In this document: positions 58,589 to 61,278 of the stretch, piece by piece | How positions within the stretch are numbered: the stretch's first letter is position 1 | Layout: every line of letters starts with the position of its first letter | Source of the DNA: Candidatus Thorarchaeota archaeon | Lineage (GTDB): Archaea > Asgardarchaeota > Thorarchaeia > Thorarchaeales > Thorarchaeaceae | Assembly (NCBI GenBank): GCA_048882485.1 | Contig: JBHLRP010000003.1 | Coordinates: forward strand, 32,001-96,000 | Reading direction: 5' to 3' | Length of the DNA stretch: 64,000 nucleotides | Program-made: the position numbers and the translations under genes | Notes under the pieces: generated by a model | What the model was told of the DNA's origin: nothing | What the model saw: the letters and a program-made list of their open reading frames with translations, nothing else | Databases searched by the model: none

Positions 58589-59233
58589 TTGGCGCTCAGG
58601 TTCGAACAATCAACACTCATGAAAGAGAAAGCTGCAATCGAGAAAAAGGATGAATCTAGCCGCTCGAAGCAAGAAAAGGAGAGGTTGCAGGAAATCAATG
58701 ATTTGCTCAAGAAGAAAATCATCAGTGTGACTATGAGTCAGGCGCTGGTGAATCGCATTGATGAGCTTGTTCATGAAACTGTTGGTAGGTCTCGAGCTCA
58801 ACTAATCGAGGATGCAGTACGATGGTTCTTGGACTATTCCGTGCATAGATGGACTGACCTCGGTCTATATGTAACTGGTTCTAGAGTTGTATTGGAATCG
58901 GAAACCATGAATTCATTCTTCTTCTCAAAGCTAACTCCATCGGATCAGTACGAGCTTGGTATAACATCAGGTAGTCAATCAGCAATCGGGGATGTTATCA
59001 CATTATATCATGGAACCGATCCATCAGATAAGGATAGTCGAGGCCTTATTCTTACACTGCTTCAGAACTTTGGGTGGGGCTTTCTGAAAATGCAAAGCGA
59101 TGACCTTCTTGTCATAACAAGCCCCTTCTATCCAGCTCCATTCATACAAGGCTATCTTGAAGCGCTGCTAAAGGTCAAGCTAGAACTGGTTGACACTGCA
59201 GGGAAAGATACCGTCGCCCTTCGATTCAAATAG
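58589..59233 (+). CDS. Ribbon-helix-helix regulator with V4R-like C-terminal domain
   Basis: IISVTMSQALVNRIDELV....SRAQLIEDAV; later G.RV, YELG...G, L...GWG, F..GYL. Confidence 0.8.
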   Translation: MALRFEQSTLMKEKAAIEKKDESSRSKQEKERLQEINDLLKKKIISVTMSQALVNRIDELVHETVGRSRAQLIEDAVRWFLDYSVHRWTDLGLYVTGSRVVLESETMNSFFFSKLTPSDQYELGITSGSQSAIGDVITLYHGTDPSDKDSRGLILTLLQNFGWGFLKMQSDDLLVITSPFYPAPFIQGYLEALLKVKLELVDTAGKDTVALRFK

Positions 59234-59256: not shown

Positions 59257-59682
59257 CTACCATTCCTCACCTAGTTCAAGTATTTCGAACTCTGCATCAT
59301 ACAGTCCTGGAATGCTTTCTATGGTGCTTCTAATGGTTGGCTCCTTCTGCCTGATTTCATCTGCTGCAAAATATACCTCATAGACACATCGATTCTCCTC
59401 GAAGCAGAATCCTGTAGTGAACAGCACCTTGAGGTCATGAGCCTTAAAAAGCTGAGTCATAGTTTGCATGAGGGCAGGATTGACCTTCTCGACCTCGAGT
59501 CTGACACGTGCTCCACCCTCCTTCATCATCGGAATGAGTCTTATCTCTCCCGACCTCTCAAAATAGATTACCATTGCAGCTTTCATGTCACCAAGTTCTG
59601 GATTATTGAAGAAGTCCTCTGGAAGGGTAATCGCCCGCTTCTTCTTGACATCTGCAATCATACCTTTAGTTAGCCCGGCCAC
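59257..59682 (-). CDS. AbrB-like + ACT-like domain protein
   Basis: VKKKRAITLPEDF...EIRLIP N-terminal pattern; C-terminal beta-alpha-beta-beta-alpha-beta ending IESIPGL. Confidence 0.65.
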   Translation of the reverse strand: MAGLTKGMIADVKKKRAITLPEDFFNNPELGDMKAAMVIYFERSGEIRLIPMMKEGGARVRLEVEKVNPALMQTMTQLFKAHDLKVLFTTGFCFEENRCVYEVYFAADEIRQKEPTIRSTIESIPGLYDAEFEILELGEEW

Positions 59683-59831: not shown

Positions 59832-59954
59832 ATGGGAAAGGAAGGAGAACTATACGTCTGTGACATCTGTCAGCAAGTTGTACGAGTAGTGAAATATGGG
59901 GCTGGAACCCTGGTTTGTTGCGGTCAACCAATGCGACTGTTTGAGGACGACTAG
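59832..59954 (+). CDS. Desulforedoxin (stand-alone FeCys4 domain)
   Basis: Not in ORF track. MGKEGELYVCDICQQVVRVVKYGAGTLVCCGQPMRLFEDD: Y.CxxC...G.GTLVCCG.PM signature; GGAG upstream. Confidence 0.92.
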   Translation: MGKEGELYVCDICQQVVRVVKYGAGTLVCCGQPMRLFEDD

Positions 59955-60003: not shown

Positions 60004-60014
60004 AATCTTTATAT
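60004..60014 (+). promoter_or_regulatory. TATA box of rpo5 paralog 1
   Basis: AATCTTTATAT, identical to 60667-60677. Confidence 0.7.
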
Positions 60015-60060
60015 GACAAGCTGAATCGGCGACTGCTAGACCTTCTTTGGGTGTGTTTCC

Positions 60061-60615
60061 ATGATAGAGTTTCCAAGCAATGTGATAAAGACTAGGAACC
60101 TTCTCAACCTTCGAGCCTATGCAGTTGAGGACTTGCTCGAATATGAGAATCGTTTTGAGATGCATCCGATTAAGAAATTAGAAGACGGGACAATCAAGTC
60201 CGTTGTATGGATTCTGAAAGAGCCTCGCGTTGTAGGGATTGCGCTAGTCAAAGATTTGGTGAAAAAGATGGAAGAGGTTCAGGCACAGGAGGGCATCCTA
60301 GTAGGTGGGTCTAGATTCACACCAGCCGCAAAGAAGCATGCCATGGACATGAGGGTTGAACTTGTCTTGGGTAACTATGCATCATTTGATCTGTTCTCAC
60401 ACGAGCTCGTTCCTTCGCATACCATTGCTGATGAAGATGAAGTGTCTCTAGTCATGGAGCATTATGGTATAGCCCGCGACCAAATTCCTCGAATCCTAAG
60501 AAACGACCCAGCTGTGAAAGTTCTAGGTGCCAAACCTGGGCAAGTAGTCAGAATCGAACGAGATAGTGATACTGCTGGAGGAGTCTATTATTACAGACTA
60601 GTAGTCACCTCCTAG
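60061..60615 (+). CDS. rpoH: RNA polymerase subunit Rpo5/RpoH, two-domain RPB5-like, paralog 1
   Basis: C-domain HELVPSH...QIPRI...DPAV..LGAKPGQVVRIER.S.TAG...YYRLV, plus ~105-aa N-terminal domain. Confidence 0.92.
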   Translation: MIEFPSNVIKTRNLLNLRAYAVEDLLEYENRFEMHPIKKLEDGTIKSVVWILKEPRVVGIALVKDLVKKMEEVQAQEGILVGGSRFTPAAKKHAMDMRVELVLGNYASFDLFSHELVPSHTIADEDEVSLVMEHYGIARDQIPRILRNDPAVKVLGAKPGQVVRIERDSDTAGGVYYYRLVVTS

Positions 60616-60666
60616 AATCAAATTTTCTTTCAAATACTGCTTCCTTTGCAAAAACCCCTAGTTGGG

Positions 60667-60677
60667 AATCTTTATAT
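60667..60677 (+). promoter_or_regulatory. TATA box of rpo5 paralog 2
   Basis: AATCTTTATAT; GGGTG precedes both start codons at the same spacing. Confidence 0.7.
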
Positions 60678-60717
60678 CTCGCGCCTAGAATTGCGTTGTA
60701 ATTTAGGGTGTTTTCTC

Positions 60718-61278
60718 GTGGTTGAATTCCCGACTTTAGTCATGAAAACCAGAGGTCTCCTTACTCTTAGAGGCTACCTTGTAGAAGAATTGCTGGAATA
60801 CGAGGACCGGTATGTGATGCATCCTACAAGGGAGTCTGAAGATATCACCGTTAAATCAGTTGTATGGATTTTCAAGGTGCCAAAAGTAGTAGGAGTGGCT
60901 GTTGTTAGGGAACTAGTGAAAGCGATGGAGGAAGCTCAAGCACAGGAGGGTATGCTTGTAGGGGGCTCTAGAGTCACACCAGCGTCAAAGAAGCTCGCTC
61001 GCGAAATGCGTGTGGAGCTTGTGGAGGGAGGCTATTCATCATTTGACCTCTTTGGCCACAGTCTTGTTCCGAAACATGTGGTTGCAGATGAGGAAGAGGT
61101 TCAACTTGTTCTTGACCACTACGGCATCAGAAGATCACAGCTGCCTCGAATCTATCGGACTGATGCCGCCGTCAAGGTACTGGGTGCAAAAACAGGCCAG
61201 GTGATTCGAATCCAACGTGAGAGCGATACTGCAGGGCTCTCCTATTACTATCGTCTCATTGTTGACCCAGGACGATGA
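60718..61278 (+). CDS. rpoH: RNA polymerase subunit Rpo5/RpoH, two-domain RPB5-like, paralog 2
   Basis: HSLVPKH...QLPRI...GQVIRIQRESDTAG..YYYRL; GTG start at 60718 makes it colinear with paralog 1. Confidence 0.92.
   Translation: MVEFPTLVMKTRGLLTLRGYLVEELLEYEDRYVMHPTRESEDITVKSVVWIFKVPKVVGVAVVRELVKAMEEAQAQEGMLVGGSRVTPASKKLAREMRVELVEGGYSSFDLFGHSLVPKHVVADEEEVQLVLDHYGIRRSQLPRIYRTDAAVKVLGAKTGQVIRIQRESDTAGLSYYYRLIVDPGR

Follow-up and report, generated by a model that had tools for sequence, protein, structure and literature searches.

The window analysed here, a 64-kb stretch of the genome of a Candidatus Thorarchaeota archaeon, contains two genes in tandem on the plus strand, rpo5A and rpo5B (hereafter A and B), each of which encodes a long form of the RNA polymerase subunit Rpo5, also called RpoH. 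Close homologues of the products carry the name Thorarchaeota in public records. An earlier sequence-only reading of this DNA had described two colinear open reading frames of 184 and 186 amino acids, not followed by rpoB or rpoA and each provided with its own promoter box and GGGTG ribosome-binding site, and this description was confirmed. BLASTP aligned the two products with 124 of 182 residues identical (68%), zero gaps and an E-value of 6e-89. The genes rpoB, rpoA' and rpoA'' were located away from the pair, on another contig (C65) of the 3.96 Mb assembly (157 contigs, 90.5% complete), and rpoH was absent from the 489 bp preceding rpoB. The usual place of rpoH at the head of an rpoH-rpoB-rpoA operon, which is typical and not strictly defining, is thus taken by neither A nor B. 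Contigs from independent metagenome runs spanned the A-B junction and its spacer, which rules out an assembly artefact; the presence of the same pair in other genomes of the genus also speaks against one. The features of the locus are collected in Table 1.

Table 1. Features of the tandem rpo5 locus, in positions of the 64-kb window.
Feature	Position	Strand	Description
Putative promoter element of rpo5A	60004..60014	+	BRE/TATA-like (B recognition element and TATA box), AATCTTTATAT within TTGATAATCTTTATATG; exact 11-mer
Shine-Dalgarno-like GGGTG of rpo5A	60049..60053	+	8 nt ahead of ATG
rpo5A	60061..60615	+	184 aa, ATG 60061 to TAG 60615, stop included; long-form Rpo5/RpoH
N-terminal jaw-like domain, copy A	60061..60378	+	Residues 1-106; predicted dead PD-(D/E)xK (Mrr-like) fold
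C-terminal assembly domain, copy A	60379..60612	+	Residues 107-184; part common to all archaeal RpoH
A-B intergenic spacer	60616..60717	+	102 bp; holds T-rich run and putative promoter of B
Putative promoter element of rpo5B	60667..60677	+	BRE/TATA-like, GGGAATCTTTATAT; exact 11-mer
Shine-Dalgarno-like GGGTG of rpo5B	60706..60710	+	8 nt ahead of GTG
rpo5B	60718..61278	+	186 aa, GTG 60718 to TGA 61278, stop included; second long-form Rpo5

Both products were identified as Rpo5 by their C-terminal domains. The Pfam family Rpb5_C (PF01191) scored 89.1 bits on A, where the match spans residues 110-181, and 90 bits on B, against a cut-off of 23.5, and the NCBIfam RpoH equivalog NF007129 scored 94.1 and 92.3 bits respectively against a cut-off of 83. 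The C-domain of A was 38-54% identical to the Rpo5 proteins of Pyrococcus, Thermococcus and Sulfolobus, with a template modelling (TM) score of about 0.85 by target and a root mean square deviation (rmsd) of 1.1-1.5 Å, and every invariant residue of the assembly domain is kept in both A and B. Only two Rpb5_C matches at E<=1 were present in the genome, namely A and B themselves; a third, short rpoH, which the sequence-only reading had proposed to look for, was not found by this search of the 90.5%-complete genome. In a relative whose genome is a single contig of about 77% completeness (G004), the tandem pair is likewise the only Rpo5. A single rpoB match (Rpb2_6) was obtained in the genome under study. 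Close proteins are named RpoH in the databases and, in some JGI records, RPABC1, so that the earlier suspicion that the long form might already be annotated was a fair one, as was the view that the pair is what deserves notice.

The N-terminal half of each protein was compared with both nucleases and eukaryotic RPB5. Mrr_cat matched the N half of A with 22.4 bits and that of B with 30.5 bits (gathering cut-off 21), and the 'inactive REase' family NA-iREase1 also matched the N halves, with 25.2 bits on A. A phmmer search of all Protein Data Bank (PDB) sequences aligned residues 41-181 of A with residues 66-209 of human RPB5, an alignment that reaches well into the N-domain and pairs EPRVVGI, M.E....ILV and FTPAAK with their human counterparts. 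A profile built from 29 N-domains, with no C-domain included, retrieved eukaryotic RPB5 chains only from 177,635 PDB sequences, with E-values of 1.4e-6 for human RPB5, 5e-5 for Arabidopsis NRPB5A and 3e-3 for the yeast protein; no nuclease was matched at E<=10 in the same set. Positions 40-92 of this profile were matched to human RPB5 65-116, and on the way from helix 1 to the sheet the offset between profile and human protein rises from 5 to 25 residues. The N-domain lacks the eukaryotic insertion of about 20 residues after helix 1 (human residues ~33-64), and measures about 106 amino acids compared with about 140 for the full eukaryotic jaw.

Structure prediction gave a corresponding picture. 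The AlphaFold2 (AF2) model of the full-length protein (predicted local distance difference test, pLDDT, 87; predicted TM score, pTM, 0.65) superposed on the whole of RPB5 in 8uhd_E with a TM score of 0.80 over 199 columns at 29% identity. All of the 34 best structure matches of this model were members of the RPB5 family, 32 of them eukaryotic and two from African swine fever virus (ASFV), and short archaeal Rpo5 chains matched its C half only. When the N-domain of A was modelled by itself (pLDDT 91) and searched against known structures, the matches included AF1548 (Z 10.6, rmsd 3.1 over 100 residues), NucS (10.3), Arabidopsis NRPB5 (9.0) and ASFV RPB5 (7.9), with MspJI and AspBHI as other near neighbours besides NucS/EndoMS. 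By sequence profile the N-domain is nearer to RPB5_N than to any solved nuclease. The earlier claim that the N half is an RPB5 jaw is borne out insofar as the phmmer alignment, the N-only profile and the full-length model all indicate a homologous and colinear domain.

The same comparisons bear on whether the N-domain could be an active Mrr-type nuclease fused to RpoH that cleaves DNA in defence or repair, a proposal considered extremely unlikely. It draws on the Mrr_cat scores above the gathering cut-off and on the presence of AF1548, NucS/EndoMS, MspJI and AspBHI among the best structural neighbours. The catalytic D...(E/Q)xK positions, however, have not been retained across the family. When aligned with a true Mrr_cat domain (GDGGVD...VQCK), long Rpo5 proteins have I, V, G or R at the acid or amide position of the (E/Q)xK motif and K, P or D at the lysine position, with K kept only in the Thor sequences. 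The NA-iREase1 match is itself to an inactive family, and in the PDB the N-only profile picks up RPB5 but no nuclease. On this alignment the N-domain is a dead Mrr-type nuclease fold that has lost its catalytic residues. The sequence-only reading had named grouping with active nucleases as an outcome that would refute it, and this outcome was not obtained: the domain proved to have an Mrr-type fold with the catalytic residues gone and a sequence profile that selects RPB5 alone. The two labels, Mrr-type and RPB5 jaw, are not in conflict, since RPB5_N is itself classed in the PD-(D/E)xK superfamily (PMC3424549).

The distribution of the long form was surveyed in 400 Asgard genomes, 369 of which contained an Rpb5_C match. 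Long-form frames of about 170-245 amino acids were found in many Asgard families, among them, by public names, Heimdallarchaeum, Hodarchaeales, Jordarchaeales and Freyarchaeia, and their divergence is deep, with 27-43% identity to A. The Heimdallarchaeum homologue (221 amino acids; 27.1 bits) was the sole one in the 400 genomes to reach the Pfam Rpb5_N cut-off. Other Asgard families have short-form frames of 81-125 amino acids. In four genomes (G026, G031, G036 and G037) the short rpoH lies on the same strand as rpoA'' and 6-10 kb upstream of it, as in the classical operon, and the long forms examined sit away from rpoA'' or on other contigs. An exception among the short forms was seen in G032, where the gene and rpoA are on different contigs. 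Five short-form Asgard genomes, searched with the N-domain and without a positive control, gave no match at E<=0.01 and hence no free-standing jaw gene. A related-locus search with one long form (P0135) returned Freyarchaeia long forms, together with matches confined to the C-domain in Methanocellales, Argoarchaeum and Woesearchaeota.

Several further matches were recorded in the course of this survey. Three free-standing Mrr-like proteins (P0136-P0138) were returned by the N-domain search, two of which (P0136 and P0138) lie on unplaced metagenome contigs of about 1 kb. Weak Rpb5_N matches in one family (f9) were considered as Rpo5 and rejected, as they belong to a 277-amino-acid zinc-ribbon protein (L037:1117-1950 and homologues, genus g17) that matches Rpb5_N at E 2e-4 to 1e-2 through a DDRGYLV helix and ends in a CxxC...CxxC zinc ribbon; the genomes that encode it have a short RpoH. 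The organization of the largest subunit was also variable. It is split in the genome under study into A' of 885 and A'' of 453 amino acids (L004:3861-7893, contig C65), the match in another genome of the same genus (G010; L057, contig C32) lies in an uninterrupted frame of 1385 amino acids, as it does in G031 and G032 of other families, and other members of the genus have one stop at the A'/A'' junction.

These data also bear on where the jaw arose. In the ESM Atlas, some clusters of this architecture are labelled Nucleocytoviricota and others Bathyarchaeota, and the latter label suggests that long forms may occur in Bathyarchaeia as well. The Nucleocytoviricota RPB5 clusters (176-204 amino acids) match the model at TM scores of 0.79-0.85 and carry the same mixture of matches, Rpb5_C with either Mrr_cat or Rpb5_N, which would agree with acquisition of a two-domain RPB5 by Asgard archaea from early eukaryotes or giant viruses. 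Such an import is nevertheless improbable. The long form extends across many Asgard families (Thor as well as the four groups named above) at the low identities to A already given, and the Asgard domain is nearer to plain Mrr_cat than the eukaryotic domain is and lacks the eukaryotic insertion. Instead, an archaeal origin of the jaw is probable, perhaps through the joining of a dead Mrr-type nuclease to RpoH, and an order from an Mrr-like domain through archaeal long Rpo5 to RPB5 would fit the data.

Wherever the locus is assembled within the genus (ten species), the tandem pair is present; in one further species (G015) the contig begins just upstream of B and therefore lacks A. Two copies also occur in members of four more genera of the family, and other genera have one. 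The duplication is accordingly not confined to a single genome, a restriction that the sequence-only reading had raised against its own proposal. A maximum-likelihood tree groups the A copies of the genus in one clade (support 99/99) and the B copies in another (100/99), and each clade divides in the same way into two sets of five species. Separate and congruent clades of this kind place the duplication before the origin of the genus. Across the family, deep nodes of the tree are unsettled, and a single A clade was not rejected (p-AU, from the approximately unbiased test, 0.435), a result that shows nothing either way.

The ratio of nonsynonymous to synonymous substitution (dN/dS, by the Nei-Gojobori method) was 0.06-0.10 in each clade, with similar values for the N and C domains, and A and B are separated by a saturated dS. 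These ratios indicate that both copies are under purifying selection. Between A and B, identity across species was 62-68%. Median identity within the genus was 73% for A and 81% for B, making A the faster-evolving and B the slower-evolving copy. Strain-level variant positions in two metagenome runs from independent samples cluster in gene A (window 60150-60530), and none was listed in gene B (60718-61278) in the same two runs. Together these observations suggest that A may be the less constrained copy. The replacement of a near-invariant DP by DA in copy B, which had been noted from the single sequence, is common to the B copies of six species, and it therefore represents a maintained substitution and not an error.

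Additional Rpo5 genes were encountered elsewhere in the Asgard archaea. A genome from another family (G160) has two long Rpo5 genes 104 kb apart (C1:150104-150322 and 254160-254378), which are not in tandem, and two genomes of one genus (G371 and G380, genus g5) have three Rpb5_C matches each. Rpo5 paralogy may have arisen more than once.

Association of the products with the polymerase was addressed by prediction of a complex between copy B and the genome's own RpoA'', with both chains given as alignments. The complex scored 0.73, with 0.00 for the best control; this level is reached by 58 of 80 solved complexes and by two of 110 mismatched pairs. The runs had at least 88% of contacts in common, the partner pLDDT was at least 81, and the predicted interface is formed by C-domain residues 105-184, including residues 149-151 in the DA region. 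As Rpo5-Rpo1 complexes are already solved, the score may reflect memory of them, and the prediction counts as likeness to those complexes, not as binding.

That one copy acts outside the polymerase, as a free jaw protein for a transcription factor, chaperone or DNA, with the other as the structural subunit, appears very unlikely. The RPB5 jaw does bind many factors, for example TFIIB, RAP30 and HBx (PMC13257274), and the DA substitution of B falls at a near-invariant position of the assembly domain in six species. Both copies nevertheless have the invariant assembly residues, dN/dS in the assembly domain is about 0.065-0.07 for each of them, and it is B, the copy with the substitution, that is predicted to dock on RpoA'' through residues 149-151, with the reservation about memory just stated.

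Each gene is preceded by its own candidate expression signals. The 11-mer AATCTTTATAT has exactly two copies in the window, a count that is not remarkable by itself since at least two one-mismatch matches were obtained in 34 of 100 shuffles. Conservation is more informative: the element stands about 47 nt upstream of the A start codon in all ten pair-carrying species of the genus, with the related TTGACAATGTTTATAT ahead of copy A in other genera, and GGGAATCTTTATA(T/A) stands about 41 nt upstream of the B start in 10 of 10 species and in G015. The upstream regions of A and B align, with the box and the ribosome-binding site in common. A G-rich motif (GGGTG, GGATG, GGTTGG or a looser run) precedes A in most of the ten species, and each B copy is preceded by a conserved (A/C)GGGTG. 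The start codon is ATG for A and GTG or TTG for B in all ten. An upstream TTG at 60646, given by the program-made list of open reading frames as the start of B, was rejected, as the promoter box would then fall inside the gene and no relative uses this codon. From their conservation, both boxes are inferred to function as promoters. A T-rich run, TTTTCTTT, lies at 60623-60630, right behind the stop codon of A, and may act as its terminator.

The immediate surroundings of the pair are not those of an RNA polymerase operon. Directly upstream is a gene for a 40-amino-acid desulforedoxin-like protein (window 59832-59954, plus strand; Desulfoferrod_N, 52 bits), and the downstream neighbour is a convergent membrane-protein gene. 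Synteny of the flanking genes is kept in another genus (L014). Two of the genes that stay beside the Rpo5 pair there encode a 141-amino-acid protein without a Pfam family (window 59257-59682, minus strand), which is highly conserved in that genus, and a 214-amino-acid ribbon-helix-helix protein (window 58589-59233, plus strand).

The explanation that best accounts for these results, and one that is judged fairly likely, is that the locus holds two ancient tandem paralogues of a long, RPB5-like Rpo5 that compete for one site on the polymerase. The C-terminal 78 residues of each product would be the usual assembly domain and would dock on A'' of the largest subunit. The N-terminal ~106 residues, by analogy with RPB5, would extend the lower jaw beside the downstream DNA and offer a surface for the docking of factors. 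Each gene would be transcribed from its own BRE/TATA-like promoter and translated from its own ribosome-binding site, as the conservation of these signals implies. Because A and B are the only Rpo5 genes found and a polymerase has one Rpo5 site, the two products most likely compete for it, and the cell would then hold polymerases with A and polymerases with B. Such polymerases may differ in function, or the copies may differ only in timing or amount, as the ATG and GTG/TTG starts might indicate.

Several points weigh against this explanation. Only 7 positions distinguish A from B in a fixed manner throughout the genus, of which six are conservative or concern length (R/K, K/R, D/E, F/V, I/L and gap/G) and the seventh is S/G; with differences so few and mostly conservative, the sequences lend little support to separate functions for the copies. 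The single rpoB means that no second catalytic core is available for a second polymerase. The label of an RPB5 jaw is also not given by every method: Pfam Rpb5_N (PF03871) had no match on A or B at E<=1 and none in the genome at E<=10, and by shape alone the modelled N-domain is about as close to Mrr-like nucleases as to RPB5. Finally, the A and B proteins are known here from their genes and from predictions, and this includes their place in the polymerase.

Some of these points favour a simpler view, in which A and B are interchangeable in function and the cell has one functional kind of polymerase. Both genes would then be retained for dosage, or for regulatory subfunctionalisation in which two promoters supply one function at different times or levels. 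The scarcity of fixed differences, the presence of all invariant Rpo5 residues in both copies and the single rpoB agree with this view, as does the fact that the consistent differences between A and B are in expression signals (start codon and promoter context); several genera of the family, moreover, live with one copy. Equivalence is nonetheless considered somewhat unlikely. The copies are only 62-68% identical and each has stayed a separate clade while the genus radiated, pure redundancy is seldom stable across saturated dS, and the faster evolution of A (73% versus 81% median identity) and its greater strain polymorphism suggest unequal constraint.

Going further than competition for one site, the cell might run its single polymerase in two forms that differ only in the jaw subunit, Rpo5A or Rpo5B, each subunit being made from its own promoter and each form serving its own promoter set, conditions or partner factors. 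The sequence-only reading had suggested such isoforms by comparison with plant NRPE5 and trypanosome RPB5z. This proposal is judged unlikely. As a hypothesis it is permitted by the data, and nothing beyond the long co-retention of diverged copies with different expression signals supports it. It would foreshadow, within archaea, the subunit swapping that lies behind specialised eukaryotic polymerases.

The Rpb5 N-terminal domain has been listed as occurring in Eukaryota only (Steczkiewicz et al. 2012, PMC3424549). Rpo5 in models of Asgard polymerases is discussed in a survey of the small subunits of archaea from 2026 (PMC13257274); that survey leaves the long form unmentioned, as does the main text of the preprint by Liu et al. 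A search of the full-text literature, with supplementary tables and subscription journals outside it, turned up neither a long Rpo5 nor Rpo5 paralogues described from Asgard archaea. A two-domain Rpo5 in many Asgard lineages would move the origin of the RPB5 jaw into the archaea, with the long form as a stage that links a plain Mrr-type nuclease domain to the jaw of eukaryotes. The tandem pair raises a testable question that is rare for archaea, namely whether alternative peripheral subunits on one catalytic core change transcription. Were this true, it would bear on the diversification of polymerases I, II and III; should the copies prove equivalent, the pair is still a clean case of a long-lived duplicate of an essential polymerase subunit.

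Archaea have one RNA polymerase, and its canonical RpoH/Rpo5 (about 75-85 amino acids; NF007129; 8cro_H, 4qiw_H and 7ok0_H) is the nearest equivalent of the C-terminal 78 residues of A and B, which match it at equivalog level. A and B differ from it by the added N-domain of 106 residues, by their two copies and by genes that do not head rpoB-rpoA. Nucleases and nuclease-like proteins of the Mrr_cat and NA-iREase1 families (PF04471 and PF22722; AF1548, 1y88; NucS, 2vld) have the same fold as the N-domain (Z 10.3-10.6), with Pfam scores above or near the cut-offs, and the N-domain differs from them by the apparent loss of the catalytic residues and by its fusion to an RNA polymerase assembly domain. 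The RPB5 proteins of Nucleocytoviricota (for example ASFV, 8q3b_E) are alike in being compact two-domain proteins, of 176-205 amino acids, that resemble the model (TM 0.79-0.85 for Atlas models; N-domain Z 7.9 for ASFV), and they differ by an identity of 10-17% in PDB examples.

Plant NRPE5/NRPD5 (8hil_E, 8hyj_E and 7eu0_E) and trypanosomatid RPB5z are comparable in that more than one diverged Rpb5-family gene is kept under selection. Each of those plant and trypanosome paralogues, however, belongs with a distinct catalytic core, whereas the Thorarchaeote genome has one rpoB and few fixed differences between A and B. Eukaryotic RPB5/RPABC1 (POLR2E, yeast ABC27; PF03871 and PF01191; 1dzf, 8uhd_E and 7eu0_E) is part of RNA polymerases I, II and III, in contrast to A and B in a genome with one rpoB. 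A and B are also distinguished from it as two tandem paralogues, as proteins about 25 residues shorter in which the stretch corresponding to human ~33-64 is missing, and by scoring with Mrr_cat and not with Pfam Rpb5_N. Eukaryotic RPB5 nevertheless has the same order of parts, a dead PD-(D/E)xK jaw followed by the assembly domain, and the likeness extends through the colinear alignment of A residues 41-181 and the whole-protein superposition at TM 0.80.

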